A stretch of 64,000 bases of DNA from an uncultured Christensenellaceae bacterium (lineage in GTDB: Bacteria > Bacillota > Clostridia > Christensenellales > UBA3700): contig CALWHJ010000001.1 in the NCBI GenBank assembly GCA_944380355.1, forward strand, positions 214,739 to 278,738, in the 5' to 3' direction. Shown in pieces: positions 6,682-59,838 of the stretch; within the stretch, counting starts at the first letter, position 1; each line of letters starts with the position of its first letter. The notes under the pieces are model-generated. The model was not told the DNA's origin. It ran no database searches and saw only the letters and a program-made list of their open reading frames with translations. Position numbers and translations under genes: made by a program.

Positions 6682-7110
6682 TTATTTGCTCAACAACACG
6701 TCGAGGTATGCCTTTATCTCTTTTTTAGCTCCCTCCAAATCGTGTTCCCTGTAATTGCCGCACTCGATAGGCTTAGTACCGGGTACATAGTCAAGCTCAA
6801 GACATTTTTTCAAACACTCGATTGTTATCTTTAGCGCTTCTTGTTCCTGCGTTTTATACAAGAGAAGATAGCAACCCGTCCTGCAGCCCATAGGTCCGAA
6901 GTACACTACTTTGTCCTTTATCTCGCTGTTACGGATTACCACGGCGAAAAGATGCTCTATCGAATGAAGCGCGGCATAAGAGATATAATCTCCCTTGTTG
7001 GGATACTTAAAACGCATATCGTAAGTATATACCCCGTTTGCCTCGCCAAGACAGTAAAATCCGGGAGTCATAGTGTTGTGGTCGAGTTCGAAAGATTTTA
7101 TATTATCCAT
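6682..7110 (-). CDS. luxS: S-ribosylhomocysteine lyase
   Basis: 142-aa ORF with the LuxS metal-site motifs HSIEHL and GCRTG in the expected spacing. Confidence 0.9.
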   Translation of the reverse strand: MDNIKSFELDHNTMTPGFYCLGEANGVYTYDMRFKYPNKGDYISYAALHSIEHLFAVVIRNSEIKDKVVYFGPMGCRTGCYLLLYKTQEQEALKITIECLKKCLELDYVPGTKPIECGNYREHDLEGAKKEIKAYLDVLLSK

Positions 7111-7127
7111 AATATACCGTGTTTTCC

Positions 7128-8048
7128 TTATGCCTTATAGAGTTCCGTCGAAAGGTATCTGCTTCCGCTGTCGGGAAGTACCGTAACGATGTTTTTGCCT
7201 TCAGTCTCTTTTGCTATTCTTATAGCCGCGTCAAGATTTGCTCCCGCGGATATGCCCGCCAAAAGTCCCTCCGTCATAGCCAGCTCTCGCGCCATCTCGT
7301 AAGCCGCATCGTTGTCGACCGTCATAAATTCGTCTATTACGCTCTTATCCAAAAGCGCGGGGACAAAATTTGCACCTATGCCCTGTATGGCGTGAGGTCC
7401 CGCGTGTCCCTGTGTTACCAAAGGAGATGCCGAAGGCTCTACCGCAACAACTTTGACGTTCTTGTTTTTGCCCTTTAAGAACTTGCCCGTACCGCTAACC
7501 GTACCGCCTGTGCCGAAAGATGCAACGAATACGTCGATTTTGCCCTCGAGGTCCTTCCATATCTCCTCGCCCGTAGTCTTTACGTGCGCCAAAGAATTTG
7601 CGGGATTGTCAAATTGAGATGCGATTATTGAATTGGGAATTTCTCTGTTGAGTTCCTCGGCTTTTGATATCGTGCCTGCCATTCCGAGTTGACCTTTCGT
7701 CAACACTACCTGAGCACCGTACGCGCTTATGAGTTTTCTTCTCTCGACGCTCATAGTCTCAGGCATTACGACTATCATTTTGAATCCCTTGACGGCACAC
7801 AGCATAGCAAGTCCTATGCCAGTATTACCCGACGTAGGCTCGATTACCGTACCGCCCTCTTTGAGTCTGCCCGACGCTATCGCGTCCTCGAGCATAAACA
7901 AAGAAGCTCTGTCTTTTACCGACCCCGAAGGATTGAGGAATTCTGCCTTTGCGTATATATCGCTTTTGAGATTGTATTTTTTCTTTATTCCGTCCAGTTT
8001 CATAAGCGGCGTATCGCCTACGAGCTGAGCTACGCTGTTATATATCAT
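7128..8048 (-). CDS. cysK: PLP-dependent cysteine synthase family enzyme (CysK, or MccA-type OAS-dependent cystathionine beta-synthase)
   Basis: Motifs NPSGSVKDR (PLP lysine), TSGNTG and GTGGT are present. I place the start at the ATG at 8048 (MIYNS) because GAGG lies 6 nt upstream. The track ORF begins at a GTG at 8060. Confidence 0.85.
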   Translation of the reverse strand: MIYNSVAQLVGDTPLMKLDGIKKKYNLKSDIYAKAEFLNPSGSVKDRASLFMLEDAIASGRLKEGGTVIEPTSGNTGIGLAMLCAVKGFKMIVVMPETMSVERRKLISAYGAQVVLTKGQLGMAGTISKAEELNREIPNSIIASQFDNPANSLAHVKTTGEEIWKDLEGKIDVFVASFGTGGTVSGTGKFLKGKNKNVKVVAVEPSASPLVTQGHAGPHAIQGIGANFVPALLDKSVIDEFMTVDNDAAYEMARELAMTEGLLAGISAGANLDAAIRIAKETEGKNIVTVLPDSGSRYLSTELYKA

Positions 8049-8079
8049 ACTCTGCCTCACGGATTGTTTTTATACGCTT

Positions 8080-8108
8080 ATTTTACTACACATATAAACC
8101 GTTGTCAA
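8080..8108 (-). promoter_or_regulatory. sigma-70-type promoter of the cysK-luxS operon
   Basis: On the minus strand, TTGACA, a 17-nt spacer, then TAAAAT. This leaves only a short leader, so there is no room for a riboswitch. Confidence 0.5.
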
Positions 8109-8182
8109 TTATGATGATTTTGACTTTTCAGGAAAATATTGTAACCCGACGTCTTAATTTTTTGCAACGCGTCGGTATATGA

Positions 8183-8219
8183 GTAATACGTTACTTATTT
8201 TTGCGTAATGCGTTACTTA
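8183..8219. promoter_or_regulatory. 15-bp direct repeat pair (candidate transcription-factor site)
   Basis: gtaatacgttactta (8183-8197) and gtaatgcgttactta (8205-8219). The starts are 22 bp apart, between the divergent promoters. Confidence 0.3.
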
Positions 8220-8267
8220 ATTTATGTACTTCAAAATGGTTATATTCGTCAAAAAGCTCAAGTTAGG

Positions 8268-8296
8268 TTGACACGCCCTATGCGATTTTATATAAT
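8268..8296 (+). promoter_or_regulatory. consensus sigma-70 promoter for the 8327 symporter operon
   Basis: TTGACA (8268-8273), a 17-nt spacer, then TATAAT (8291-8296). Confidence 0.6.
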
Positions 8297-8326
8297 GAAT
8301 TTGAACAACATAACAAAGGGGTAATT

Positions 8327-9961
8327 ATGGAAGACAATCAAAACGTGACCGCTACTCCCGCGGACGAGCAAACCTTGCCTAATACAGGCGACAAATCCAA
8401 AATGTCCAAATGGGAGATTATCGCTTACAGCGGCGGTGAAATTTACGGCGGCGGTTATGCCGCTTTGCTGGGCGTTGTGCTCACTTTCTTTTTGACCAAC
8501 CTCATTCTCGTCGGAATCAAAAACGCCGAACTCTATGCGGCAATCATTATCGTCGTATCCAAAGTATGGGACGCTATCTCCGACCCTCTTATGGGCGTGA
8601 TATCCGACAACACCCGCTCGCGCCTCGGCAGACGCAGACCCTGGATTATCATAGGCGGCGCGCTCGTGCCGGTTGCGTTTGCGATAATGTTTCTGCCTTG
8701 GGCAAAAGGTATAGAAAATCAAGGACTGAGAATAGCTTACGCTTGCTTTGCATATTTCCTTCTCTGCACGGTCAACACTATATCGCAAGTGCCTTTTATG
8801 TCCCTGAGCGCAGAGATTTCCACCGACTACAAAGAACGTAACAAAGCCAACTCCGTAAAACTTATTTTCTCCATTCTCGCTTCGGGTCTTTTCTACCTCA
8901 TACCCGCCGCGGCTACGGAAGCTTACTCTGCATACATTTCTCACGAAGAATCTATGTTCGGCACCGTCAACGAAACGGGATTCTTCCTCATCGTAGCAGT
9001 GCTTTGCGGAGTTATTTTCGGCGTGGCTACCTGCCTTACCGGTATCTTCACAAAAGAACGTACTCCTTACGACAAAAATGTCAAGAGTACTTTCTCTTTC
9101 AAAAGTTATGCGGTACCCCTCAAAAATAAGTCGTACAGATATCACCTTCTGATGTATCTTATGGCTTTCGGCTGCTACGATTTCATATCCGCACTCGTAC
9201 TCTACTACGTTACCGCGGTAGTACCTCAAATCACCATCTTCGGTATGACTATGAGTTCGCTGTTTATCGTCGCGCCTATGATGGTTATGGCTGCCGTAAC
9301 GTACCCTATCAATATGAAACTCAAATCGACTAAAGGCAAACAGTTCGCTTACCGCTGGGGACTCCCCTTCTATATCATCGGCGCGATAGGTCTTGCCGTA
9401 TTCCCCAACACTACCAATACCAACGTAAGCTGGCTGCTTTTGATTTGCTCGTGCATTATGGGTATCGGTTTCGGCGGAGCGCAGATGATGCCCTGGATGA
9501 TTTTCCCCGACACACAGGACGTAGCCGAACTTAAGACGGGCGTAAAAGATACGGGCTGTTACAGCGGACTTATGACTTTCGCTAGAAAAATAGGCACCGC
9601 GCTCGCTCAGAGCATAGTGCTCGTAGTACTCGCCTGCGTAGGCTACAGCGCATACAATGCCGAAATAATCAACAACAAAACCCTTATTGCCCAAGCCGCC
9701 GAAAAAGGAGAAGAAATCGACACTTCCGGTATGCTTCTCGCTTTCCCCGCAAAAGTAACGGTCGCAATCAGAGTTATGTTTGCCGTTGCCGTACTCGTAA
9801 TGATAAGCATAGGAATATGGGCTTCCGTAAAATATAAGGTTACGGATAAAAAACTCGCTCGCATCAAGTACTTCCTCGAGAAACAGCGTGCAGGTGAAAA
9901 CGATACTCTGACCGAAGAGGAAAAAGCCGAAAAACAAGCACTTCTGGAGGAACTCGGCTGA
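8327..9961 (+). CDS. GPH-family (MelB/MFSD2-like) cation symporter
   Basis: 544-aa polytopic ORF with the GPH signature (WDAISDPLMGVISDNTRSRLGRRRPW). Confidence 0.8.
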   Translation: MEDNQNVTATPADEQTLPNTGDKSKMSKWEIIAYSGGEIYGGGYAALLGVVLTFFLTNLILVGIKNAELYAAIIIVVSKVWDAISDPLMGVISDNTRSRLGRRRPWIIIGGALVPVAFAIMFLPWAKGIENQGLRIAYACFAYFLLCTVNTISQVPFMSLSAEISTDYKERNKANSVKLIFSILASGLFYLIPAAATEAYSAYISHEESMFGTVNETGFFLIVAVLCGVIFGVATCLTGIFTKERTPYDKNVKSTFSFKSYAVPLKNKSYRYHLLMYLMAFGCYDFISALVLYYVTAVVPQITIFGMTMSSLFIVAPMMVMAAVTYPINMKLKSTKGKQFAYRWGLPFYIIGAIGLAVFPNTTNTNVSWLLLICSCIMGIGFGGAQMMPWMIFPDTQDVAELKTGVKDTGCYSGLMTFARKIGTALAQSIVLVVLACVGYSAYNAEIINNKTLIAQAAEKGEEIDTSGMLLAFPAKVTVAIRVMFAVAVLVMISIGIWASVKYKVTDKKLARIKYFLEKQRAGENDTLTEEEKAEKQALLEELG

Positions 9962-10800
9962 TGAAAAAACAATATACCGCAGAAGACTTTCATACTCTGC
10001 CCCTTACGGGTCTTACGGGAGCGCTGTGCAAAATTATGGACATACCCGCCCCTAAGCAAAGTCAAGGCGTACTCGAAGAGCTTTGCTCTTTTGTGGACAG
10101 TAAAACGGACGGAAAAGGCGTGGACAGAATACTTATGTTCAACCCCGACGCAATAGGCACTTATACCTACCGCAAGTATTCTGCTAAATTCGACGCGGTA
10201 AAACAATACGCGCCTTTCGAGCTGAATATGCTTACCGTATTTCCGCCCAAAACTCCCGTTTGTTTCGGAAGTATGTATACGGGCGCATCTCCCGAAGTAC
10301 ACGGAATACAGCACTACGAAAAACCCGTAATTAGAATCGACACGATATTCGATGCAATGATACGCGCCGGCAAAAAGCCCTGTATAGTCGCAGTAAAAAA
10401 TTCGAGTATGGCAAAAATTTTTCTCGAGAGAGATATGGATTACTATATCGAAGACTACGACAACGAAGCCGTTACCCGCGCGCTTTCGCTCATAAAAGAA
10501 GATAAGTACGATTTGATATGCGTGTATAATCAGGAATTCGACGACGTTATGCACCGCTCTCACCCCGACTCTATGCGCTCGCAAAAAGCTATCGACCACT
10601 ACTCTCTTTCGATGTCGCTTTTGGGTGAAGCCGTAAAGACTTATTGGCAAAATCACAATACGCTAATCGGCTATGCGCCCGACCACGGTACGCACAGAGA
10701 ATGGTATCTTTTGGGACAGCACGGAAAGAATATTCCTAAAGATATGAATATCACTCATTTTTACGGTGTAATTCCCAAAACGCAAAACAGCAAAAACTGA
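9961..10800 (+). CDS. alkaline-phosphatase-superfamily phosphodiesterase (nucleotide pyrophosphatase/phosphodiesterase-like)
   Basis: 279-aa ORF whose start overlaps the symporter stop (TGATG). NPP-type motifs are present: the Thr nucleophile context FPPKTPVCFGSMYTGASPEVHGI, then EFDDVMHRSHP, then APDHGTH. Confidence 0.6.
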   Translation: MKKQYTAEDFHTLPLTGLTGALCKIMDIPAPKQSQGVLEELCSFVDSKTDGKGVDRILMFNPDAIGTYTYRKYSAKFDAVKQYAPFELNMLTVFPPKTPVCFGSMYTGASPEVHGIQHYEKPVIRIDTIFDAMIRAGKKPCIVAVKNSSMAKIFLERDMDYYIEDYDNEAVTRALSLIKEDKYDLICVYNQEFDDVMHRSHPDSMRSQKAIDHYSLSMSLLGEAVKTYWQNHNTLIGYAPDHGTHREWYLLGQHGKNIPKDMNITHFYGVIPKTQNSKN

Positions 10801-10840
10801 TATCAAACAGTTTTTCGGTTTAAAAACTGCGAATTTAAAA

Positions 10841-10866
10841 GTCCGCTTACGATGCGGGCTTTTTCT
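10841..10866 (+). terminator. intrinsic terminator
   Basis: Stem gtccgc/gcgggc followed by a T-run. Confidence 0.55.
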
Positions 10867-11064
10867 ATTGAGATAGCGTTATGCTTTGATTTTCATAGCG
10901 CAACAATGACTTATTTTGAGGCCGCAGATATCTTTCTATCAGTCGATTGTTATTTTTATAACAAGCCTTTTTGCTTTATATACCGATTTTATAGCCTTAT
11001 AAAGTACTAAAACACGTAAAAATATTAAAAAAAACACTTTGGTATTGACAAAGTTTTTGTCTTA

Positions 11065-11781
11065 ATGTTTAATAGAATTATGGAAGTGTTGTTAGGTGTT
11101 TTGATGGCGGTTTGCCTTGTAATGGGCGTTCTTAAAAGCTACTGTCGCAACAAAGAATATCTCGAATACGAACTGCTCTTCAAAACTTGCGGTTCGTTGA
11201 GTTTCGTATGTCTGGGCATTCTGGCTTTTTATATCTCGGGTACGGACAATATACAATATGCGCTGGCTGTAATAATAGCGCTCGTACTCGGACTTTTGGG
11301 CGATATCTTCTTGTGCCTTTACGATATAATCGTAATACCCAAACACAAAGACTTCGTGCAGTATGTCGGCGTAACGTTCTTTTTCCTCGGACATATATGC
11401 TATATGTTCAATTTCCTCTCGCTCGCGCCGCTCAAACTCTATCTTATTCCTTTCGTCATAATAATGCCTGCGATTTATCTCGTACTCGCTCTTACGAAAA
11501 AGGTAAAGACAAATACTCTTCAAAACGTATTTCTTACTATTTATTTTCTTGCACTGAATCTGATACTGCTCTCTTCCATAAACTTGATAATCGTAAGAGA
11601 AGATACGGTATTCCCTATTCTGGTGCTCATTGCAAGCACGCTGTTTATATCGTCGGATATAGTACTCGGACTTTCGTGGTTTGCCCCCTCGGCAAAACTG
11701 CATAAAAACTACGACCTCTATGTCATACTCAGCTACTTTGCGGCACAATGCATATACGCTATATCAATATACTTTGTATGA
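11065..11781 (+). CDS. YhhN-family membrane protein (lysoplasmalogenase family)
   Basis: 238-aa ORF with about 8 TM segments. It has the two half-repeat motifs typical of YhhN/TMEM86 (LLGDIFL and FISSDIVLG). Confidence 0.55.
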   Translation: MFNRIMEVLLGVLMAVCLVMGVLKSYCRNKEYLEYELLFKTCGSLSFVCLGILAFYISGTDNIQYALAVIIALVLGLLGDIFLCLYDIIVIPKHKDFVQYVGVTFFFLGHICYMFNFLSLAPLKLYLIPFVIIMPAIYLVLALTKKVKTNTLQNVFLTIYFLALNLILLSSINLIIVREDTVFPILVLIASTLFISSDIVLGLSWFAPSAKLHKNYDLYVILSYFAAQCIYAISIYFV

Positions 11782-11807
11782 GTATGATTGCTCCCCGACA
11801 CAACGAA

Positions 11808-11833
11808 AAGACGCCTCAAGGGCGTCTTTTTTT
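11808..11833 (+). terminator. intrinsic terminator
   Basis: Stem gacgcc/ggcgtc followed by a run of seven T. Confidence 0.7.
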
Positions 11834-11898
11834 AACCAAATTATAAACTGTTTATCTTATAAGCAGTCAAGCTCGACAGGTTAACTAACCGAAAATCC

Positions 11899-12210
11899 CT
11901 ACCGCCGAGAAGGGGTGCGAAATAGACTGTAAGCAGTGAATTTTGCGATGCTTTGTTGTACCGCTAGCGAGCGGTGCGGATAAGATTTGAGACGCGCATC
12001 TTACGGCTGTTATTTTGTTGAGGCACTTGACAATACGGCAAGTATTGCCGTCGCACCTCGCCGCATAACAACCGCAATCTGCTACTCTCAAATTGCAAGC
12101 CCCGTATTACGGCTTATCCTTACCGCTTCTTATCGGCAATGCGAAAGGAAGAAGTAATACTTGCTGTATTACGATGACGCAGAATTGAAAAGCGGAAACG
12201 CAGAATTGAC
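11899..12210 (+). repeat. copy 1 of a dispersed ~0.3-kb hairpin-rich noncoding element (5' arm plus core, no 3' arm)
   Basis: Aligns almost base-for-base with 46584-46880. It contains nested helices and has no conserved ORF. Confidence 0.8.
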
Positions 12211-12225
12211 ATATATATAAACTCA

Positions 12226-12576
12226 GTACCGCCGAGAAGGGGTGCGGGCTAGGCTGTAAACAACAGATTTTCCGATAATTTGCTTTGAGAAGGACTAAAT
12301 AATACTTAATTCACATACCAGGTACCGCCGAGAAGGGGTGCGAAATAGACTGTAAGCCGTGGATTTTGCGTTTTGTATTTAAGTAAAGTCCAACAGAATT
12401 AATAACAAAACCCGTACCGCCGAGAAGGGGGGCGGGCTAGGCTGTAAACAACAGTTTTTCCGATAATTTGCTTTGAGAAGGACGAAGTAATACTGGATGT
12501 ATTATGAGGACGCCGAAACGCAAATTACGGAAAAGATGCGTTTAGAGACAGCCCGCATCCCCTTCGAGGCGGTACC
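12226..12576 (+). repeat. tandem array of three further 5'-arm modules, ending in a 163-bp mini-element with inverted terminal arms
   Basis: The module gtaccgccgagaaggggtgcg starts at 12226, 12322 and 12414. The inverted partner agcccgcatccccttcgaggcggtacc lies at 12550-12576. Confidence 0.8.
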
Positions 12577-12578
12577 AA

Positions 12579-12899
12579 TCACATATACGCCACGCCCATT
12601 GAGAACAACGCCAGATAGCATATCAGCACAAGCAATATGACCATTAACCAGATTATAAATCCGTAAATAGCGTTTCTTGCAAGAACTTTTGAAAAGACGG
12701 GATAAGTCTTTCTGAAACAAAAACTGACTATAAGCCCCACAAAAGGCAACAATATCGCGGTCAACACAAGATACCTTGCCAAGTGAATATTGACAAGTTC
12801 TCTCGACTTTGTGTTGGGATTGTAGAGTTGCTCGCCGCAGTAAGGACAAATCACCATATCTTTATCCACTTCTCTGCCGCATTTGGGACACTGATTCAT
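12579..12899 (-). CDS. zinc-ribbon membrane protein of unknown function
   Basis: 106-aa ORF with an N-terminal CPKCG...CPYCG zinc ribbon followed by two hydrophobic helices. Confidence 0.55.
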   Translation of the reverse strand: MNQCPKCGREVDKDMVICPYCGEQLYNPNTKSRELVNIHLARYLVLTAILLPFVGLIVSFCFRKTYPVFSKVLARNAIYGFIIWLMVILLVLICYLALFSMGVAYM

Positions 12900-12984
12900 A
12901 GCTTTATTTTATCACTCTTTCTTTGCCTAGTCAATACAAAAGCCCCCTCGGCAAAGGGAGCTTTACGTGTATTTTTCTTTTGAT

Positions 12985-14712
12985 TTATTTGCAGGAATTG
13001 AGCGCGTCAAGTTCGGTCTTTATTATCTCACCGACTACATCGACAGCACTGTCGTAAGCGTACTTCTTGCTTTCCTTTGTTTTGCGGATTGTGATTTCCA
13101 CCTCGTCGGTAGCAAGACTCTTGGGAGATACTACTATACGTATAGGCATTCCCATCAAATCCGCATCGTTGAATTTGATTCCCGCAGCTACGTCTCTGTC
13201 GTCGAAAAGTACGTCGACGCCTGCCTTCTTGAGTTTGTCATACAAATCGTATGCCTTTTTTGCCACGGTTTCGTCATCGATTCTCAAAGGACACAAGTGT
13301 ACCTGCCAAGGCGCAACCGTCATAGGAAGCACAAGTCCTTTATCGTCTCCCGACTCCTGCGCTATCGAAGCTATCGCTCTGCCTACGCCTATTCCGTAGC
13401 AACCCATAATAGGATTGAAAAGCGAACCGTCCTGAGCCGCAACCGTCATACCCATAGATTTGGTGTATTTTACTCCGAGTTGGAATATATTGCCGATTTC
13501 GATACCGTTTTCTATCCTGAGTTTTCCTCCGCAAACGGGGCATCTGTCTCCCTCTCTTGCTTTGGAGATATCGTAAAACTCAGCGTCAGGCATATCCCTT
13601 TTGAAGTTAAAGCCCGTATAGTGATATTCGGGTTTGTTGGCACCTATCACGAGCGCGTTGACGTCGGCAAGCGACTTGTCGTAAACGGTAATGATACTCT
13701 TGTCGAGATTATAGGGACCTATATTTCCGCAAGCAATTACCTCGCTTACTCCGCCATCATAAGGCACGATATCCTTTTTGAGAACTTTTTTGAGTTTTGC
13801 TTCGTTGACTTCAAGGTCTCCTCTGGTGAAAGCTATAACTACTTCTTCGCTGTTGCCCTTGACCGCAAATACTACGGCTTTGCAAGAAAACTCCGCTTTC
13901 TTGTTAAGACGTCTGCATACCTCTTCGATAGTCTTGTCCTCTCCCGTAAATACCTCTCGCAAAGGCTCAATCTCGCACTCTGCAGGATTGATTTTGCCTT
14001 CGGCAACTTCCATATTCGCTCTGTAATCGCAATCGTTGCAAAGTACTATGCTGTCCTCGCCTACTTCGGTCAGAAGCATAAACTCGTGCGCTATACTGCC
14101 GCCCATCATACCGCTGTCGGATTTGATGTCTATAAAGTTTTTAAGCCCTATTCTCTTGAAAATTCTTACGTATGCGTCAAAAACCTTGTAGTAGTAATTC
14201 TCGAGGTCCTCTTTTGTGGCGTGGAAAGAATATGCGTCCTTCATAGTAAACTCTCTTACTCTTATAAGTCCGCCTCTCGCTCTCGCTTCGTCTCTGAATT
14301 TGGTCTGTATCTGATAAATCATCATAGGAAGCTGCGTATAGCTGCTTACGATATGATTAGCAAGGTGTACTGCCGCCTCTTCGTGCGTCATACCGAGGAG
14401 CATATCTCTGTTGCTTCTGTCCTTGAATCTTACCATTTCGCTGCCGATAGTGTTGTATCTGTCGGAAAGCTCCCACAATTCTTTTGGCATTACGACAGGG
14501 AAAAGCACTTCCTGACCGTCGAGCGCGTCCATCTCTTCGCGAATAATATTCTGAATCTTCTGGCTCATCTTCTGACAAGGCATCGTCATAGTGTAGATAC
14601 CTCCCGCAACCTGCTTTATATAGCCGGCTCTGGAGAGAAGAATATGGCTCTTTATTTTTGCGTCCTGGGGAGCGTCTTTAGTACGTTCGCAGACCAACTT
14701 GCTGAGTAACAT
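12985..14712 (-). CDS. proS: proline--tRNA ligase (bacterial type with editing insertion)
   Basis: 575-aa ORF with typical ProRS N-terminus (SHILLSRAGYIKQVAGGIYT), class II motifs and a C-terminal anticodon-binding domain. Confidence 0.95.
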   Translation of the reverse strand: MLLSKLVCERTKDAPQDAKIKSHILLSRAGYIKQVAGGIYTMTMPCQKMSQKIQNIIREEMDALDGQEVLFPVVMPKELWELSDRYNTIGSEMVRFKDRSNRDMLLGMTHEEAAVHLANHIVSSYTQLPMMIYQIQTKFRDEARARGGLIRVREFTMKDAYSFHATKEDLENYYYKVFDAYVRIFKRIGLKNFIDIKSDSGMMGGSIAHEFMLLTEVGEDSIVLCNDCDYRANMEVAEGKINPAECEIEPLREVFTGEDKTIEEVCRRLNKKAEFSCKAVVFAVKGNSEEVVIAFTRGDLEVNEAKLKKVLKKDIVPYDGGVSEVIACGNIGPYNLDKSIITVYDKSLADVNALVIGANKPEYHYTGFNFKRDMPDAEFYDISKAREGDRCPVCGGKLRIENGIEIGNIFQLGVKYTKSMGMTVAAQDGSLFNPIMGCYGIGVGRAIASIAQESGDDKGLVLPMTVAPWQVHLCPLRIDDETVAKKAYDLYDKLKKAGVDVLFDDRDVAAGIKFNDADLMGMPIRIVVSPKSLATDEVEITIRKTKESKKYAYDSAVDVVGEIIKTELDALNSCK

Positions 14713-14897
14713 TTTTATACCTCGCGTGTAAAATTCTTTAATTCTTTGTTATTTTAGCATATACGTCCGACAAAAGCAAGTATTAACGCATAAAGGATAA
14801 AAAAAGCGTTTTGCCTCTTTTAAAGCGGTTTACGATACGACATCTATTGTACATATGCACATATTCGCATATGCCGATATCAACATAACGGTATATG

Positions 14898-14942
14898 AAA
14901 AAATGCGCATATCTTTGTATTTGCAAAGGAAAGTATGCGCAT
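14898..14942 (-). terminator. intrinsic terminator downstream of the ferritin-like gene
   Basis: On the minus strand, a 9-bp outer stem atgcgcata/tatgcgcat encloses an inner ctttg/caaag stem. A T-run follows. Confidence 0.6.
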
Positions 14943-14967
14943 CGGTACATATTAATTTTTTGGTTTG

Positions 14968-16209
14968 TCAGGACAAGAATTCCGAGGTATTGTCCTTGTG
15001 TCTGTCCTGCAAAGCTACTACGGGGTGCTCTGCAATCTGATAGCGGTAATCAATACCCTTTTTGGCTATATAGTCTTCGATTACCCTATGGGACGGCGTA
15101 AGCTTTTTGGAGTGATTAACTATATCTTGATAGGCAAAATATTCCGCGTCGGAGGGCAAGTCCTCGACTTTTGCATACCCTTCCCTGTCCGCAGTCATAT
15201 CCACCGTGTTGCTCAGTATATTTCTGATATAGTCCTTGTGCGGACAAAATTCTATAAGAGAAGGAAACTCACCGTCGGGAATAACTTCCTCCGCGATGAT
15301 TTTGCCGTACTTTTCCAAAAGCGATTTAGCTATATTCAAATGGCACAGCTCCTCTTCGAAAAACTCCTCCCACATAAGTTTGAGCCTGTTGTCCTTTTCG
15401 CCGTTGTAACACGAATAATACAAATACGCTTCGCAGTATTCGTGCATAAGCAGATTTTCGAGAAAAGAAGGCTTGGTATCGAGAAGCGACCCGTAATGCG
15501 TGACGTGCTGTTCTTCAATCATAGCTATCTCGTTGTAAAGTTCGCGTCCCAAAGACGAACCCTCGTAAAACGCTCCCGCGTTCATATAGTAATTCATCGT
15601 CTGCTGTTCGGCGGCGGTAATGGTCATAATATGAAGCACGGTAGAGAGTTTTTCCTGTTTGTTGTCGATATGTTTTTTTATGCTGTCATAGGGATGGCGG
15701 TGTTCGGATATGGTAGGACGTCCGGGCATTATCTCGGCATATTCTCCCACAAGTCTTTGCGCCTTTACGCCTTGCTCCATTTCAAGCAAATCCGCATAGC
15801 GGTAAAGATGGTCAAAGTCTTCGAGCAGCGCAAAGTCGAGTGCTTGCTTTACATAGGGATTGCTCTCTTTGAGCGCAAGTTCTGCCGTCAAATCGACCGC
15901 AAGATGCTCGTAGCCTATAGTATGCTCGAGAATATTCTCGTTTTGAGGTTTGAGCGAGGATATACGCTTTTGCTGTTGTGCTTCGCCGCGCCTTATCGCC
16001 GCCAAAGCGCGACGTATATCGTTGTTGTCGCAAGTTCTGGAAAACCTGTGCGAAAAGTTGATAGCCTCAAATTCCGTACCGTTCATAAGTATGATTCTCA
16101 GTTTGGAATAGGGGTCTGCCGTCTCTTTGTCGTATGCCTTGGAAGTAAGCTTGGGCATTGATACGTAATAATTGTCAATAGACTTGCTCTTTATATCGAA
16201 AGGATTCAT
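14968..16209 (-). CDS. ferritin-like (di-iron carboxylate type) superfamily protein, function unknown
   Basis: 413-aa soluble ORF with repeated E...ExxH-like helices (ILEHTIGYEH, LEDFDHLYRY, AAEQQTMNYY, IEEQHVTHY, MHEYCEAY, EEELCHL). Confidence 0.4.
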   Translation of the reverse strand: MNPFDIKSKSIDNYYVSMPKLTSKAYDKETADPYSKLRIILMNGTEFEAINFSHRFSRTCDNNDIRRALAAIRRGEAQQQKRISSLKPQNENILEHTIGYEHLAVDLTAELALKESNPYVKQALDFALLEDFDHLYRYADLLEMEQGVKAQRLVGEYAEIMPGRPTISEHRHPYDSIKKHIDNKQEKLSTVLHIMTITAAEQQTMNYYMNAGAFYEGSSLGRELYNEIAMIEEQHVTHYGSLLDTKPSFLENLLMHEYCEAYLYYSCYNGEKDNRLKLMWEEFFEEELCHLNIAKSLLEKYGKIIAEEVIPDGEFPSLIEFCPHKDYIRNILSNTVDMTADREGYAKVEDLPSDAEYFAYQDIVNHSKKLTPSHRVIEDYIAKKGIDYRYQIAEHPVVALQDRHKDNTSEFLS

Positions 16210-20472: not shown

Positions 20473-22791
20473 TTATACGTCGTATTTAGACAGTATCTCC
20501 ACGGGCGTCTTTCTCGTAAACGACAATATCGGCAACAGCGATACTATCATCATACAGCCTGCAATACCCGCTATCGCCGTAAAAAACAGCCACAGGGGGA
20601 AGTACAAAAGCGTGCCGTCGGAGAATATAAGTACAGGCAATCCTATCACGACGAATACCGACACTACGCATATCAGTATAAGCGCGAGAGATTCGACGAA
20701 AAATTTGTATACGATATTCTTTGTCGATACGCCTATTGCTCTGTAAAGTCCTATCTCCTTGGCTTTGCCGGACAATGCCGAATAAAACATCAGTGCCGCC
20801 GACACAAGCATAATCGCTATCAGTATAGCAACTACTATTACGAATTTTATTATTTCTTCCTTTACTTCGTCCATAGCTTGCTTATACATTATATTTTTGG
20901 TCTTTATGTTTGAAAACATGCCTGTCTCAATCAATGTGTCCGCAAGTTTGTTTGCGTCTGGAGTAAGTATGCAGTATTCTCTGTAATTTTCGAATCTGTC
21001 TTCAAGCGCACGCATTTCGTTTTCGTTGATTACCCAACCGATTACTTTGTCGGAATTTCTGACAACGAATTTTTTTCCGAATATATCGACTACTCTTCCG
21101 TCTTCGTAATTCCATCCCGGTGATAAAAGTACCTCGCCGTCTTTAGCTTCTTCTCCGAAGTAACTGTCGGGGGAATATCCGAAAATTACGTCAATCCAGA
21201 GCAAATCCTCCATATAAGCGTACGATTCGTCCTCGTCCACTACGCCGACTATCTTGACGGTCTTTGTTCTGTCCATCTTTACGGTCGCGTTGTAAAGTAT
21301 CTCATAGCCTACGCCGTTTACTTTTGCTTCGTGAAGCCAGCTGGAGAGAATATCGTCGGCAAGTCCCTTGCTTATGACAATCCTGTCGTAAGCCGTCAAA
21401 TCGTCGGGAGTGCCGTATATCCATTTCATATTTTTTACCTTTTCGATATCGTTGAAAGTATAATCCAAGAATGACCAGTATATAGTTTCGAGTGTCTCGA
21501 ATCCAGCAATACCGACTTCCATACGCGACGAAAAGTTGCTTACGTAAGCGTACTCCACATCGTAGCCTTTTTGGGCGATTATATTATCGACTTCCTTTTT
21601 ATCGCTTGCTCCGTTTACGGCGACTCTAATCAGATTTTCATTAAAATCGCTGCCGATATTATCGTATTTAAAAATCTTCGAACCGAGTACACCTACAAAA
21701 ATAACGATTGCTATCATAAACACAAAGACAGATACCGTAAAAAGAGTAAATCTCTTCTTTTTGTTGAATATCGACTTCACGCCCGACACAAACGCGCTTT
21801 TGAAAGAGAATACCTTACCCGTCTTGCCCGTCTGCACATTGCTGAGAAAATTCATCGCACCGTGCGCCTTGACGCGTTGTTCTTCCAAAAACTCCTTTTC
21901 CGTCTTGTCTTCGAATTTTATCTCCGACTTCTCGTCGATTAGCCTTACGTTTTTGTCAGTCGTCTTGAGATAAATCTTTCCGCCTTCGTTGACAAGCATC
22001 AGATTTACGGGCAAAGCTTCGCCGTAATAGTCTATGTTTACGTTGTCTACGGTAAGTCTGTTTTTCTTTTTGTCTCCGAGAAAAACTCTCGTCTTGTCGG
22101 ACGTACCGTGAGAGATTTTTCCTCCCTCGCTGAGATTTTCTATCCTGCCGTCCTTTATCTGTATTACGCTGTCGGCATACTTCTCTATCAAATCGCCTTC
22201 GTGCGTTACCACTATCACAAGACAGTTGGTACTCAATGCCTTCAACAGCTCCATTACCGTTCGAGTGTTCAGCTCGTCAAGATTGCCCGTCGGCTCGTCC
22301 GCAAGTATTATCCTGGCTCCCTTGACCATTGCTCGCGCTATCGCTACTCTCTGCTGCTGTCCTCCCGACAGCGTTGTCACGTTGCGCTTGTAATAGTCCC
22401 TCATTCCTACGTTATCGAGTGCAGTCATTACCCTGTCGAATATAACCTCTTCGTCCTTTACTCCGACAGTTCTCAGTCCCTGCGCTACGTTTTGGTATAC
22501 GTCCAGTCTTTCGTCCAGAAGATAGTTCTGGAATATATACCCTATATTCTCTATCCTGTACTTATCGTCTACGCTGCTCTTGTAGACGTTGCCGTTCATT
22601 ATTATCTCTCCGCCGTCGAATTTGTCCAATCCGCCCAGCGCGTTCATAAACGTAGTCTTTCCCGAACCGCTCGCACCGTATATGGCTACAAGTCCTTTCT
22701 CGGGAAACTCCACGCTCACGTCGTTGACGGCGCGTACTTCGTTTGCCTTGTTCTTGTTGAAAATCTTGAGAAGATTGTTAACCTTTATCAT
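20473..22791 (-). CDS. fused ABC transporter ATP-binding domain plus FtsX-type permease (MacB-like architecture)
   Basis: 772-aa ORF. N-terminal Walker A (GASGSGKT), signature (LSGGQQQR) and Walker B (ILADEPT). A TM helix and a large extracytoplasmic region follow, then a C-terminal FtsX-like 3-TM bundle. Confidence 0.8.
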   Translation of the reverse strand: MIKVNNLLKIFNKNKANEVRAVNDVSVEFPEKGLVAIYGASGSGKTTFMNALGGLDKFDGGEIIMNGNVYKSSVDDKYRIENIGYIFQNYLLDERLDVYQNVAQGLRTVGVKDEEVIFDRVMTALDNVGMRDYYKRNVTTLSGGQQQRVAIARAMVKGARIILADEPTGNLDELNTRTVMELLKALSTNCLVIVVTHEGDLIEKYADSVIQIKDGRIENLSEGGKISHGTSDKTRVFLGDKKKNRLTVDNVNIDYYGEALPVNLMLVNEGGKIYLKTTDKNVRLIDEKSEIKFEDKTEKEFLEEQRVKAHGAMNFLSNVQTGKTGKVFSFKSAFVSGVKSIFNKKKRFTLFTVSVFVFMIAIVIFVGVLGSKIFKYDNIGSDFNENLIRVAVNGASDKKEVDNIIAQKGYDVEYAYVSNFSSRMEVGIAGFETLETIYWSFLDYTFNDIEKVKNMKWIYGTPDDLTAYDRIVISKGLADDILSSWLHEAKVNGVGYEILYNATVKMDRTKTVKIVGVVDEDESYAYMEDLLWIDVIFGYSPDSYFGEEAKDGEVLLSPGWNYEDGRVVDIFGKKFVVRNSDKVIGWVINENEMRALEDRFENYREYCILTPDANKLADTLIETGMFSNIKTKNIMYKQAMDEVKEEIIKFVIVVAILIAIMLVSAALMFYSALSGKAKEIGLYRAIGVSTKNIVYKFFVESLALILICVVSVFVVIGLPVLIFSDGTLLYFPLWLFFTAIAGIAGCMMIVSLLPILSFTRKTPVEILSKYDV

Positions 22792-25124
22792 TTGTTTGCC
22801 CTCCTCAATCCTTTTCTTATCTTTTGTTTGTATATAAGCTTATTGTACGAGCCTGCCAGAATCAGCAGTATTATCGTCATTCCCAGTACTATCATAAATA
22901 CCGCTTCCCAGCCCATATATTGAAGTACCGCACCTATAGGAGCAAAGTACATAATCAATACCAAAATCACGCACAAAATCAGTGCTGGTACAAGTGCTAA
23001 AAACAGCTGTACGAAAGTCGACGCTTTGACTGTCGAATCGGCAATACCCATAGTCCTGAATACCGACACGTCTTTTCTGCCTAGCGACATAAGTTTTATG
23101 AGCGTAACTACCACAACAAGAGATACTGCTACCGAGAAGGCAAGACTTATGAGCGTCGTGGAAAAGAAGTCGATTAGTTTTTCGATAAAGGAAAGATTTG
23201 ACATAATATTAATATCCCTGGCGCGTATGGAACTGTAACCGTCACGCGTCATTTTATCGACTGCCACACTCGCTTTTTTGTTGTTTTCAAAGATAAGCGA
23301 TATCTGCTTACTCTCTTCGGTAAAATAATCTTTGAATACCTCAGGACTTACGCTGAAAACTATGCAAGAAGCATCGTAAAGCGAAGATATAAAGGGCTTT
23401 AAATCCTCATTGTATTTTACGTCCGTAAAAAGCACTGCCGCAGATACTGCTTTTCTTATATAAAGTCCCTCGTTGTTATCTATCAACGCATTGGTTTCCA
23501 CAACCTTGCCTTGCAAATCGAAGTTAATCTGAAATACCGCGTCTTTCATATAACGGCTGTCTAAGAAATTGCCTTCCTCGTCCTCGATTACGGGAAAACC
23601 TTCTGCGTCAACCTCGACTATCGCGCCGCTCAAAGGAGGTAAATTCAGCCTCTGAAACTGAGAATAATACTCGTATCCTTCCGTTGTAAAGCACGCAGTC
23701 ACGGGCTTTCTGTTGTCGACATAATAATCAATACCCGAGATGACGTAAACCATACCCTGATTGTTTGTATCGTCAACTCTGGAATCGTAATTTACGTTGA
23801 ACATCTCAAGCTTTTGACCTACGCTGTACTCTTTTGCGTAATTGTAAGGAATACGAAGCAATACCTCGTCGGCTCTTTGGGGCAGCCTGCCCTTGTCTGC
23901 TTTTTTGCCGTCAAGCCTATCCAAGCGGAAATATTCAAAATTTTTGACAGTATCTCCTTCCATTACCACGAGCGCGGATGCGTCGAAATAGATATCGTGC
24001 ATAATAAAGGACGATGCTCCGTATTTATCCGCAAGCTCTTGCGCGCTTTGCTCGGTGTAATAATCGTCGCGGGTAGCGACCCCGTTACGCTGTTTAACGT
24101 CGTCGTGTCCACTTTGCTCGGTGTAATAATCGTCGCGGGTAGCGACCAGTACTCTGCCTTCCATATCGTTGACAGCGAAAGTTACAGGATAAAATCCCAG
24201 GTTGCTCACCAAGGATATGGAAAGAATAATACCGCTTAGCGCGATAAACAAAACAACAGATATCAGAATATTCTGTCTAGGACGGGTGCAAAACCTCTTC
24301 CAGCCCAGTATGAACTTATCTCTCGCGTCAGTACGTCTGTCTTCTTTTGAACGCTTGCTTTTTTTGCGACGCGTTTTGAAAACGTACTGTCTTTCTTTTT
24401 CGTAAAGACCTTCCCTCTCCTCTACGTCTTCGGAGCTTTTTACTCTCTCGAAAATTTCGTCGCTTTCAATTCCGCCGTCATATACGCGAATATGCCTGGT
24501 TGCGTATTCCTTAACGTCCTCGTAATTGTGCGTTACCACTATCACGAGCTTGTCTTTAGACACCTCTTTCAAAAGTGCGAGTATGCTCTTTGCGTTGACG
24601 CTGTCAAGATTGCCCGTAGGCTCGTCTGCCAGTATGACGGGACTGTCTTTTGCTATCGCTCTCGCGATGACCGTTCGCTGTTTCTCGCCGCCCGAAAGCT
24701 TAACCCCTTTTGTGTTGAGTCTGTCCTTCAGTCCTACTCTTTCGGCTATCTCCAGCGCACGACGTTTTCTCTCTTTAAGGTCCTTGACCGACGTCAATGC
24801 AAATTCAATATTCTCGAATACCGTAAAGCTTTCGAGTATGTTGTAGTCCTGAAAAATAAAGGACACGTACTTTGCCACGTATTCGTCCCAGTCGGCCTTT
24901 ATGTAATGAGAAGTGGGCTTGCCCTCTATATACATCTCCCCTTCTTCATAGCTGTCAAGTCCGCCTATTACGTTGAGAAGCGTGGTTTTACCGCTTCCCG
25001 ACTTGCCCGTAACCGCGACGAATTCTCCTTTGTCAAAAGACAAATTTACTTTGCGTATACCGACTGCTACGTTGTTTTCGCTAGAGTAAATCTTGCCTAT
25101 GTCAGACAATCTCAAAAATGCCAT
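22788..25124 (-). CDS. fused ABC transporter ATP-binding domain plus FtsX-type permease (paralogous partner)
   Basis: 778-aa ORF with GKSGSGKT, LSGGEKQR and ILADEPT, and the same downstream architecture. Its stop overlaps the start of the downstream gene by 4 nt. Confidence 0.8.
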   Translation of the reverse strand: MAFLRLSDIGKIYSSENNVAVGIRKVNLSFDKGEFVAVTGKSGSGKTTLLNVIGGLDSYEEGEMYIEGKPTSHYIKADWDEYVAKYVSFIFQDYNILESFTVFENIEFALTSVKDLKERKRRALEIAERVGLKDRLNTKGVKLSGGEKQRTVIARAIAKDSPVILADEPTGNLDSVNAKSILALLKEVSKDKLVIVVTHNYEDVKEYATRHIRVYDGGIESDEIFERVKSSEDVEEREGLYEKERQYVFKTRRKKSKRSKEDRRTDARDKFILGWKRFCTRPRQNILISVVLFIALSGIILSISLVSNLGFYPVTFAVNDMEGRVLVATRDDYYTEQSGHDDVKQRNGVATRDDYYTEQSAQELADKYGASSFIMHDIYFDASALVVMEGDTVKNFEYFRLDRLDGKKADKGRLPQRADEVLLRIPYNYAKEYSVGQKLEMFNVNYDSRVDDTNNQGMVYVISGIDYYVDNRKPVTACFTTEGYEYYSQFQRLNLPPLSGAIVEVDAEGFPVIEDEEGNFLDSRYMKDAVFQINFDLQGKVVETNALIDNNEGLYIRKAVSAAVLFTDVKYNEDLKPFISSLYDASCIVFSVSPEVFKDYFTEESKQISLIFENNKKASVAVDKMTRDGYSSIRARDINIMSNLSFIEKLIDFFSTTLISLAFSVAVSLVVVVTLIKLMSLGRKDVSVFRTMGIADSTVKASTFVQLFLALVPALILCVILVLIMYFAPIGAVLQYMGWEAVFMIVLGMTIILLILAGSYNKLIYKQKIRKGLRRANK
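24046..24147 (-). repeat. in-frame 66-bp-period tandem duplication inside the ABC/FtsX gene
   Basis: The 36-nt string ctttgctcggtgtaataatcgtcgcgggtagcgacc occurs at 24046-24081 and 24112-24147. It encodes VATRDDYYTEQS twice. Confidence 0.9.
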
Positions 25125-46311: not shown

Positions 46312-46583
46312 AAAAAAATCCCTCCTTTTTATTGCAATTATATTATATGCTCACTGCTCTTCAAAGTCAATTATTTACAAAAAAATTAATTACGTTTAAT
46401 CCGAAAACGGCAAAATCTAACAAAAAATCCCTGCGCTAATAGCTGAGCAAACCAAACTGCAGGCAGCGTTTTGCAAAAGATTTTCAAAGTCGCAAAAGCG
46501 CGAAAACGCGGAACCGGGAGGTAATAATAAAAATGTCCGCTTACCTTTGCAGGCAAGACGGATAGAATAATTAGCCAAAAATC

Positions 46584-46931
46584 AGTACCGCCTAGAAGGG
46601 GTGCAAACTAGGCTGTAAGCCGTGGATTTTGCGATGCTTTGTTTGTACCGCTACTCAAAGGCGCGGATAATATTTGAGAGGCGCATCTTTGGGCTGTTAT
46701 TTTGTTGAGGCACTTGACAATACGGCAAGTATTGCCGTCGCACCTCGCCGCATAACAGCCGCAATCTGCTACTCTCAAATTGCAAGCACCGCTTTATACG
46801 GCTTATCCTTACCGTTTCGTATCGGCAACGCGAAAGGAAGAAGTAATACTTGCCGTATTACGATGACGCCGAATTGAAAAGCGCGGAAAAGACACGCTCA
46901 CAGCCAGCGAGCACTCCTACGAGACGGTACT
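46584..46931 (+). repeat. copy 2 of the dispersed hairpin-rich noncoding element (complete, with both arms)
   Basis: Near base-for-base match to 11899-12210. The terminal arms 46584-46604 and 46911-46931 pair at 18 of 21 positions. Confidence 0.8.
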
Positions 46932-52872: not shown

Positions 52873-53418
52873 ATGAACTGGTATGACGAAGTAAAACTCA
52901 ATCTCAAAAAAAAGCGGGCAATACTTTTCTCTAAGTCGAGCGAGTGTCTGTTGCCCTTGCAAAGTCAGCTCGAAGATACCGACAAAAGGACGGCGGTATT
53001 GTGGTCGCTTTATTTTGCCGAAGAAGCGTTCAATTTACTGTCTGCCCGATATCCCGACGAAAGCGCGCCTTGCGACGCACTCGCGCTTACTAAGTTGTGG
53101 GCACAGGGCAAAGTCAAAATGCCTGAGGCAAAAAGAGCTATACTCGAGTGCCACGCAATGGCAAAACGATTGTCTTCTCCCGAAGATATTGCGCTTTGTC
53201 ACGCAATCGGTCAAGCGTGCGGCTGCGTGCACGCAAAGGGGCACGCAATAGGTTTTCCTGTATACGAATTGACCGCTATCGTAAGAAGATACGGCATCGA
53301 AGCCTGTAAAGACGCGATAGAAAGACGACTCGACGAATATCGGGAAAAACTACTTGAGTTAAACTCCTCTCGCCAAGCCGATAAGTATGAGTGGGCAAAG
53401 TTTTTAAAATCAAACTAA
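52873..53418 (+). CDS. all-alpha protein resembling Imm5-like putative immunity proteins
   Basis: 181-aa ORF. The pattern (AEEAFNLL...P.D..P..AL...KLWAQGKV....AKRAILECHAMAK......A..HAIGQA...VH...HA) recalls that family from memory only. No search was run. Confidence 0.3.
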   Translation: MNWYDEVKLNLKKKRAILFSKSSECLLPLQSQLEDTDKRTAVLWSLYFAEEAFNLLSARYPDESAPCDALALTKLWAQGKVKMPEAKRAILECHAMAKRLSSPEDIALCHAIGQACGCVHAKGHAIGFPVYELTAIVRRYGIEACKDAIERRLDEYREKLLELNSSRQADKYEWAKFLKSN

Positions 53419-53533
53419 GCAATATACGAGATTAGCGACAACATATCAAGCCTTTATGCCGGACGATTTTTACTGACAACAAAACTCAGAATTCGCACGC
53501 AGTACGGCATTTTATTCCCTCAAAATTTTATCG

Positions 53534-53567
53534 AAAAAGACAGCCTTTTGAGCTGTCTTCTTTTTTG
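53534..53567. terminator. bidirectional intrinsic terminator
   Basis: aaaaagacagccttttgagctgtcttctttttt. Confidence 0.7.
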
Positions 53568-53600
53568 ATTTTCTTTTGCTTTTCAGATATTGTTATACCG

Positions 53601-58206: not shown

Positions 58207-58231
58207 ATCTTTTCCCTTCTATTCACCGTTT

Positions 58232-59761: not shown

Positions 59762-59838
59762 CTTCCTCTCCGTTTGTTTTAATATTGTAAGTAACGCGCT
59801 TTATGCAAAACGCTTAATAATTTTTACCGTTTAAAATT

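Follow-up and report, generated by a model that had tools for sequence, protein, structure and literature searches.

What kind of element recurs, almost unchanged, in two intergenic clusters lying 34 kb apart in the genome of an uncultured Christensenellaceae bacterium? Within the window, as we call the whole 64,000-nucleotide stretch of DNA analyzed here, positions 11899-12197 and 46585-46883 are ~92% identical over ~300 nt (alignment A1; repeat families D7-D9), which confirms the near-identity of two ~0.3-kb stretches reported by an earlier note on this sequence. That note left a choice between a novel structured noncoding RNA and a modular repeat of the BOX or MITE kind. We consider it probable that both stretches are long-form copies of a non-autonomous, MITE-like foldback family belonging to a narrow Christensenellaceae lineage.

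When 11880-12230 was aligned with 46566-46940, the shared part ran up to ...GAATTGAAAAGCG, and the blocks previously quoted as shared carry no change between the first and second stretch, hereafter copy 1 and copy 2. The 20-mer that opens both copies, TACCGCCGAGAAGGGGTGCG, has five occurrences in the window when up to 3 mismatches are allowed (0 expected), and the predicted folds of the elements have z-scores of -6 to -10 on either strand; recurrence and fold scores together exclude chance as the source of the repeat. Fold energies favor neither strand consistently in either element. The helices ACGGCAA/TTGCCGT, GAGG/CCTC and GTAATAC/GTATTAC, as well as GGCTGTTAT/ATAACAGCC with its C-A mismatch in copy 1, are present both in the sequence and in the predicted folds, as had been read by eye. 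The open reading frames noted in the two copies are real and lie on opposite strands (11885-12091 minus, 68 aa; 46674-46877 plus, 67 aa), none is common to both, and the view that no reading frame is conserved stands. A conserved small ORF was also considered for the family and rejected, the short ORFs differing by strand and by the sequence types (A and B) described below.

The helices belong to a larger structure, of which the 36-nt arms, the outer rod and three units that follow copy 1 had been overlooked. Cluster a, in the intergenic region between a YhhN gene and a zinc-ribbon gene, consists of four tandem units (11899-12575), with copy 1 as the first and a right arm in the last unit only:

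11834..11898, plus strand: AT-rich upstream module with a small hairpin at 11848-11866
11899..12225, plus strand: unit U1 (copy 1), long form, with left arm, body, nested core and apical hairpin
11956..12140, plus strand: nested hairpin module of U1, 185 nt, the core of the earlier note, aligned with three other copies in alignment A3
12154..12172, plus strand: apical hairpin of the outer rod, GTAATAC-TTGCT-GTATTAC (alignment columns 74-92, 98.6% paired)
12226..12321, plus strand: unit U2, a B-type left arm and half a body, truncated in the apical hairpin
12322..12413, plus strand: unit U3, an A-type left arm and short body, then a remnant of the upstream module
12414..12575, plus strand: unit U4, a complete short B-type rod of 162 nt, with its right arm at 12540-12575

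The arm motif GTACCGCCGAGAAGGGGTGCG recurs at 12227, 12323 and 12415, and the inverted partner of copy 1's left arm is found only at 12540-12575, beyond U2, U3 and U4; U1 itself has no right arm and ends in an AT-rich junction. The truncation junction of U2, which is 92% identical to U4, is found again at a related locus (L004, 5049-5146). U4 is a nearly perfect 162-nt rod (-82.2 kcal/mol, z -10.2; covariance-model score 175.9 bits) whose right arm stops 3 nt short of the stop codon of the zinc-ribbon gene (12579-12899, minus strand). The module hairpin at 11848-11866 reads CTGTTTAT-CTT-ATAAGCAG, and the module is homologous to one of the form TCCGCTTGCC..GGCAAGTCGGA-(C/T)AGAATAA that precedes units at other loci. 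Both copies had been placed directly 3' of minus-strand genes. That is not so for copy 1, because three further units intervene, and copy 1 itself sits just past the terminator of the plus-strand YhhN gene; the description fits the four-unit cluster as a whole. With 36-nt left arms that follow one another at intervals of 327, 96 and 92 nt, cluster a was also considered as a CRISPR array. This reading was rejected because the would-be spacers are homologous to one another.

Cluster b lies at the 3' end of an RsgI-like gene and contains a single unit:

46536..46584, plus strand: upstream module, comprising a hairpin (46536-46562), then TAGAAT (46563-46568) and an A-rich spacer
46585..46930, plus strand: copy 2, a complete long-form unit of 346 nt with both inverted arms (left arm 46585-46620; nested core 46642-46829; apical hairpin 46843-46861; right arm 46896-46930)
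46917..46930, minus strand: last four codons (S-T-V-S) and TAG stop of the RsgI-like gene (ORF 46917-48236)

Copy 2 is a complete element because the inverted complement of its left arm is present, in degenerate form, at 46896-46930. The module hairpin reads TCCGCTTACC-TTTGC-AGGCAAGACGGA, and on the minus strand the module presents a hairpin (-15.6 kcal/mol) followed by CAUUUUUAUUAUU. The right arm overlaps the end of the RsgI-like gene, the stop region of which is encoded by a locus-specific right-arm variant, CTCGTAGGAG as against the consensus CTCGAAGGGG. Comparison of the C-termini with those of orthologues at empty sites (L016 and L017) showed that in element-bearing genomes the gene terminates within the right arm and takes its TAG from the arm variant.

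Together, the window and related loci supplied 13 complete and ~14 truncated units, from which a general anatomy can be drawn. The basic element is a rod of ~135-162 nt, paired along almost its full length, whose outer part is formed by 36-nt imperfect inverted arms (GTACCGCCGAGAAGGGGTGCG... / ...GCACCCCTTCGAGGCGGTAC) in which the sequence GTACCGCC-GA-GAAGGGGTGCG...CTGTAAGC pairs with its complement, and whose apex is the GTAATAC/GTATTAC hairpin. In the long form, a second hairpin module of 185-188 nt is nested in an internal loop of an outer rod of ~160 nt; units accordingly come as 66 nt (arms only), 135-162 nt (short form) or 346 nt (long form). An upstream module of ~55-80 nt accompanies the rod on its left and is made up of a hairpin (TCCGCTTGCC-loop-GGCAAGTCGGA), the motif (T/C)AGAATAA and an A-rich spacer. 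The imperfect inverted arms are found in 13/13 complete units, as is a TA at both tips, nearly always as G-TA...TA-C (a GTAC...GTAC context). The conserved G that precedes the left TA, and likewise the C that follows the right one, may belong to the element itself and not to a GTAC target. The arms start with GTAC, contain internal palindromes of at most 3 bp and have no GTAG-type REP head, and the left and right ends show a conserved asymmetry, GA versus TC. Sequences of two subfamilies (A and B) and of a third type of body (C) combine as mosaics, and both the mosaic modules and identical truncation junctions reappear at unrelated loci. The arrays are polar, with 8 of 12 truncated units broken just before the right arm.

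Standard pairs make up 96.3% of the pair cells across ten complete short rods, compared with 33-49% in slid controls, and nine pairs are changed on both sides, essentially between subfamilies A and B; full-length pairing of the rod is therefore maintained. These compensatory changes are equally expected for the inverted repeats of a mobile element and so do not separate RNA from DNA. A tandem G.A/A.G mismatch in the outer stem is invariant among the aligned complete rods (A2). The remaining rod mismatches include 15 G.U cells versus 7 C.A cells, in roughly equal numbers as independent events; assigning a strand from this ratio was tried and proved uninformative once the cells were reduced to such events.

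The core is a nested module. Relative to a short A-type rod, the long form has 185-188 extra nt, placed between GCTTTG and GCGAAAGG. This segment folds as a hairpin in its own right; at its 5' end, GTACCGCTAGCGAGCGGTGCGGATAAGA is similar to a left arm, and the covariance model of the rod weakly matches the core on the opposite strand. It is cleanly gained or lost between strains: L006 and L018, which represent the same locus in one species, with flanks 98.9-99.3% identical and a locus-specific right arm in common, differ by exactly the core, with 189 nt in the former and TCC in the latter. This indel carries no TA duplication and may represent gene conversion rather than transposition. When the compensatory-change check suggested by the earlier note was run on the core, 0 of 61 predicted pairs were changed on both sides and 8 cells were broken, in a test whose power is low because it draws on only 4 near-identical copies, from two species, with ~94% mean column identity. 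The substitutions that do occur break helices rather than compensate. The central part of the core, at least 66 nt, is invariant in the four copies from the two species (alignment A3), and this invariance could reflect constraint.

The family is confined to a narrow Christensenellaceae clade. We searched for the exact left-arm 20-mer in representative genomes, one each for 185,579 species, and only two of them match, in 8 stretches in total; both are metagenome-assembled genomes (MAGs) of uncultured Christensenella or Christensenellaceae. One MAG (CASERZ01) holds at least 7 loci on 5 contigs by the exact 20-mer alone, the other a single locus. The window is 93.7% identical over 7.7 kb to one of the 20-mer-bearing MAGs and 100% identical over 8.7 kb to ENA ERZ28614065 scaffold_5. 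Viral contigs gave 0 matches to either arm sequence, and a 19-mer search of metagenome contigs gave 3 matches, all of them chance hits inside a high-GC actinobacterial coding region. In blastn searches of plasmids and phages the full unit had no match and the left arm chance matches only (E=3). Scans with the covariance model (R1) detected no copy in ~80 kb of DNA from the empty-site species or in the 10 kb that precede the window.

A search of the whole window against Rfam 15, as the earlier note had advised, gave 0 matches at the gathering threshold and, within both elements at E<=10, only CRISPR-DR57 (16 bits, E=1); on 8 related loci just tRNAs, RNase P and a cobalamin riboswitch were found, all outside the rods. 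A 6S, Y-RNA-like or other rod RNA was likewise rejected, there being no covariance-model signal for one. With no Rfam match, mixed orientation to genes and 0 compensatory pairs among the four core copies, the novel structured RNA reading is not supported, though it is not refuted either. Neither an autonomous element nor a transposase with matching ends turned up in the window, the related loci examined, plasmids or phages, and inspection of ORFs showed no RAYT-like gene adjoining the clusters. The earlier note had looked to copies that consistently flank a transposase as the mark of a plain MITE. No such gene was found, and copies that flank a transposase make a composite transposon; a MITE is by definition without one. 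In the literature we found no described Christensenellaceae repeat and no Firmicutes REPINs.

Evidence for mobility comes from related genomes in which the same sites are empty, as is the case in relatives for both sites in the window. At locus a, the site of cluster a, ~797 nt separate the convergent genes in the window, but only 42 nt and 20 nt do so in two relatives (L012 and L013, whose ProRS is 90% and 84% identical to that of the window), where the shared terminator alone is left in the gap. The inserted block begins right past the YhhN terminator and therefore includes the upstream module at 11834..11898, which is missing from both empty sites. Because the block thus includes ~65 nt to the left of the arm, the mobile unit is not simply bounded by its two arms. 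A putative ACCAA direct repeat flanks the locus-a block, at a site whose empty counterpart has diverged. At locus b, the site of cluster b, L016 and L017 have a native terminator each and gaps of 189 nt and 233 nt, respectively; the gap measures 557-605 nt in element-bearing genomes (605 nt in the window), in which the element has replaced that terminator. A GTAC does occur close to the stop codon at the empty site of L016, but it is 5 nt out of register and was set aside as evidence for a GTAC target at this locus. A target-site duplication is putative: TA is present at the tips of all complete units, and the empty sites compared are too diverged to define one.

These comparisons show that both sites in the window acquired their blocks once relatives ~77% identical in DNA at locus a (L012) had split off, that the blocks decay to fragments in other lineages, and that the number and type of units vary between close relatives. 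The last two points are illustrated by three genomes at locus a:

L020, 95% nucleotide identity: a different array, made up of a B-truncated unit, a C-type unit, a module and a short A unit
L022, 82% nucleotide identity: a degenerate right arm only
L023, 81% nucleotide identity: the right half of a long unit only

The right junction of the L020 array contains a 15-nt duplication. Presence and absence at the same sites in related genomes indicate that the element behaves as an ordinary miniature mobile repeat and not as a new RNA gene. The BOX/MITE-like reading of the earlier note is supported by dispersed copies, mosaic modules, empty sites and decayed remnants, and further by the strain-level indel of the core and by inverted terminal arms with TA tips.

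Relative to neighboring genes, the orientation of the element is mixed. At ~5 loci a convergent gene has its 3' end next to the right arm; at ~4 the arm adjoins the leader or ribosome-binding site of a gene running in the same direction, as at typA in two MAGs (L003 and L007), a 540-aa gene (L008) and a cobalamin riboswitch (L001). At these four loci the rod must be transcribed, because the right arm ends directly at the ribosome-binding site or riboswitch. Right arms lie 0-15 nt from gene ends at 8 loci, and the neighboring genes are functionally unrelated (a ProRS-adjacent zinc-ribbon gene, an anti-sigma gene, typA, a B12-riboswitch gene). Read on the plus strand, the upstream module could be taken as a weak sigma-70 promoter (TTGyCT, N14-17, (T/C)AGAAT), with hexamers that by eye match at no more than 8/12 positions and a spacing of 14-17; a consensus promoter scan did not call it in either window copy. 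On the minus strand it presents a hairpin of -9 to -21 kcal/mol, followed by a good U-run in ~5/12 copies; a terminator scan did not call the module, and there is no terminator downstream of the rod. Promoter-like and terminator-like roles of the module are candidate readings from sequence, neither of them established.

Full-length pairing, a promoter-like module and insertion beside genes are features that could also be explained in other ways. An independently transcribed family of rod-shaped noncoding RNAs, with the core as an optional extra domain, would have the upstream module as a promoter ~20-45 nt before the rod and might yield an RNase III substrate or a protein-binding or sponge RNA. 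Such a family would account for the -35-like and -10-like hexamers in the conserved module that precedes most first units, for the nine compensatory pairs that keep the rod paired, for the invariant tandem G.A/A.G mismatch, which is stable on the plus strand only, for the invariant core center in four copies, and for the four loci (L003, L007, L008 and L001) at which the rod must be transcribed. Yet the hexamers are poor (up to 8/12, spacing 14-17) and the promoter scan was negative, no terminator follows the rod, many units are truncated, decayed or without a right arm, sites are empty in relatives and orientation to genes is mixed, G.U versus C.A mismatches give no strand signal, and the core, with 0 compensatory pairs and helices broken by substitutions, has no Rfam relative; we regard this explanation as unlikely. 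Retention as a cis-regulatory cassette for neighboring genes, in which the minus-strand hairpin and T-run would act as a terminator with the rod as an mRNA stabilizer, and the plus-strand rod as a regulated 5' leader, seems highly improbable to us. The neighbors have no function in common, both orientations occur, relatives manage without the element, the terminator scan was negative and more than half of the copies have no convincing U-run. These observations outweigh the placement of right arms 0-15 nt from gene ends at 8 loci, the module hairpins of -9 to -21 kcal/mol with a good U-run in ~5/12 copies, and the replacement by the element of the native locus b terminator of L016 and L017.

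It is also conceivable, if rather improbable, that the element moves as a single-stranded hairpin through an HUH Y1 transposase, in the manner of REPIN/RAYT or IS200/IS605 (PATE) elements. Polar insertion beside a specific sequence could explain head-to-tail arrays that share one right arm, and tandem clustering, the 8/12 truncated units of these polar arrays that break just before that arm, the GA versus TC asymmetry of the ends, the 15-nt duplication at the L020 right junction and whole-length pairing held by compensation, as in REPINs, are all in keeping with such a route. Against it, single arms are not palindromic REP units and have no GTAG-type REP head, TA tips and 36-nt inverted arms are more like the terminal inverted repeats (TIRs) of DDE-type elements, and no Y1 transposase gene was noticed by ORF inspection in the loci examined. 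A more elaborate scheme, to which we give little credence, has the arrays built not by random insertion but by a polar, site-specific process in which a new module, left arm and body are added each time directly in front of a right arm that stays fixed; every unit would be transcribed from its own promoter-like module, and the whole would be a mobile, self-extending RNA or single-stranded DNA switch cassette. Were this true, a single right arm could pair alternatively with several left arms, the cassette would rewire 5' leaders and 3' ends, and the mobilization mechanism would be one undescribed for bacterial MITEs.

We therefore return to a non-autonomous, MITE-like foldback family as the reading to be preferred. 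Its copies may have spread by trans-mobilization through a transposase encoded elsewhere, and the TA tips, set in GTAC, are reminiscent of RUP, Correia and ERIC with their TA-duplicating, IS630/Tc1-mariner style. Dispersed copies would then have been reshuffled through recombination or gene conversion among themselves. Arrays with many left arms and one right arm, which are contrary to the prediction of simple cut-and-paste, could arise if new units insert or recombine directly before a right arm already present and the resulting tandem right arms then collapse to one per array. Full-length pairing would be kept since the element acts as a hairpin or inverted repeat, whether in transposition or as a stem in transcripts, and effects on neighboring genes would be a by-product. 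Candidate by-products include a 3' hairpin or terminator-like module behind convergent genes, a stem in the leaders of typA and of the cobalamin riboswitch, and the C-terminal codons of the RsgI-like gene. Simple cut-and-paste leaves the polar arrays, the module outside the left arm and the invariant core center unexplained.

Several known repeats invite comparison. REPIN and BIME elements form full-length hairpins with compensatory pairing, occur in tandem intergenic clusters and are moved by RAYT. The Christensenellaceae element is like them in the first three respects; it differs in that its arms do not form GTAG-headed REP palindromes, no RAYT was seen, and its host belongs to the Clostridia and not the Proteobacteria. 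BOX elements of the pneumococcus are modular, non-coding mosaics with a variable number of internal modules and potential for stable RNA structure. The comparison with BOX, proposed by the earlier note, holds insofar as both are non-coding mosaics of a few modules; boxA, boxB and boxC, however, are arranged linearly with boxB repeated, whereas here hairpins are nested, the arrays repeat the left part of the unit, and there is no sequence similarity. Longer variants of ERIC were reportedly traced by Wilson and Sharp in 2006 to insertions at fixed internal sites, and the present element resembles ERIC/IRU in having longer variants as well as an imperfect palindrome with TA termini. ERIC/IRU elements of enterobacteria are ~127 bp imperfect palindromes with TA termini, are co-transcribed with neighboring genes and have orientation-dependent effects on mRNA (PMC2229807). 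The host phylum differs from theirs and there is no sequence similarity, and ERIC has very short perfect TIRs (7 bp) and mostly solitary copies, in contrast to the arrays described here.

There are close parallels with accepted bacterial MITEs, for which TIRs, TA termini, long stem-loop transcripts, size variants produced by internal segments, putative promoters and gene fusions have all been published, and many of which have no known partner insertion sequence (PMC2229807). Correia/NEMIS elements of Neisseria have 24-26 bp inverted arms, TA termini and size classes of 107 and 155 bp (PMC2229807). Like them, the element is non-coding, has TA termini, would form a long stem-loop if transcribed, occurs in size classes set by an internal segment, carries putative promoters and is often beside or fused with genes (PMC2229807). 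It is unlike Correia/NEMIS in its 36-nt arms, in pairing over the entire element, in an internal segment that is a 185-188-nt hairpin module of its own, in polar arrays that share one right arm and in the extra module outside the left arm, and the two have no sequence similarity. RUP of Streptococcus pneumoniae is an IS630-Spn1-dependent MITE with TIRs and TA insertion, whose highly conserved copies suggest recent spread (PMC2229807). RUP, too, is found in Firmicutes and has TIRs and TA ends, TA duplication being putative in our case, but it has a partner insertion sequence with matching TIRs, and none was found here. Since its features match those published for Correia, ERIC and RUP, we file the element as a new family of that kind; on present evidence, no new class of RNA or mobile element is opened.

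The family is a previously undescribed repeat of the Christensenellaceae, a gut lineage known mostly from MAGs. It rewrites gene ends, as at the C-terminus of the RsgI-like protein, and puts long hairpins into the leaders of typA and of a B12 riboswitch. The nested core and polar arrays are possible strain-typing markers, and could help trace the transposase or recombination route by which foldback elements are moved in Clostridia. The repeat is also a source of strain-level structural variation and breaks short-read assemblies, with many contigs ending inside it; tandem units may be collapsed or wrongly joined in such scaffolds. Among the short-read contigs themselves, several end in or beside the element.

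At two loci the arms of the foldback repeat overlap or adjoin a neighboring gene or riboswitch. The open reading frame for the RsgI-like anti-sigma protein has its 3′ end within the right arm of the repeat (window 46917-46930, minus strand), and its TAG stop codon is supplied by an arm sequence particular to this locus, CTCGTAGGAG, as against CTCGAAGGGG in the consensus; RsgI-like orthologues at empty sites have C-termini that differ from that of the window ORF. In L001, a locus from a related genome, the last base of a mini element meets the first base of a cobalamin riboswitch, and transcription of this riboswitch must pass through, or start from, the repeat cluster. A consensus scan also placed a promoter-like site within the nested core of the repeat in both window copies. 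The features concerned are as follows.

Window 11987-12016, plus strand: promoter-like site in the nested core, from the consensus scan
Window 46674-46703, plus strand: promoter-like site in the nested core, from the consensus scan
L001:4186-4435, minus strand: region with the mini element (66 nt, arms only) and the cobalamin riboswitch that it abuts

The promoter-like site reads TTGAGA, N18, TATTTT with an upstream TG and matches the consensus at 9 of 12 positions, a call that is not evidence of function.

Window 7065-15781 is identical to L033:1-8717 (100% over 8717 nt), which derives from ENA ERZ28614065, ONAT22-1_SAMEA6814651_METAG-scaffold_5 (562,586 bp), the probable origin of the window, and the repeat is the end point of many Logan and ENA short-read contigs covering this region. 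Strain-level variation was found elsewhere: ∼540 nt of L006:6723-7260 (window ∼53028-53574), comprising the 3′ part of a gene and its terminator, are cleanly missing from L018 and L019, loci that are otherwise 99% identical to L006. The orthologue of this gene in L016 and L017, two relatives with empty sites, is Imm5-like.

Directly upstream of a three-unit repeat cluster in L004, a further comparison locus, lies a 5-kb stretch (L004:1-5050, CASERZ010000016.1) with a GC content of 27-38%, in which there is no ORF >93 aa and an Rfam search returned no match; a non-coding stretch of this length is unusual for its genome.

Paralogues and internal repeats are also present in the window. Three tandem paralogous ORFs of ∼1.65 kb each (56557-61377; 549, 509 and 512 aa) share 67-99% DNA identity; Glyco_hydr_30_2 domains are present in the orthologous proteins of L017 and L018. 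Two adjacent minus-strand ORFs of ∼775 aa each (20473-25124), which have short conserved DNA blocks in common at an offset of 2327 nt (repeat families D11 and D13), are probably tandem paralogues. Within ORF 55146-56366, a 48-nt tandem repeat of ∼7 copies (55389-55758) probably encodes a variable-length linker, since the orthologues, cobW-family proteins, are 357-396 aa long versus 406 aa for the window protein.
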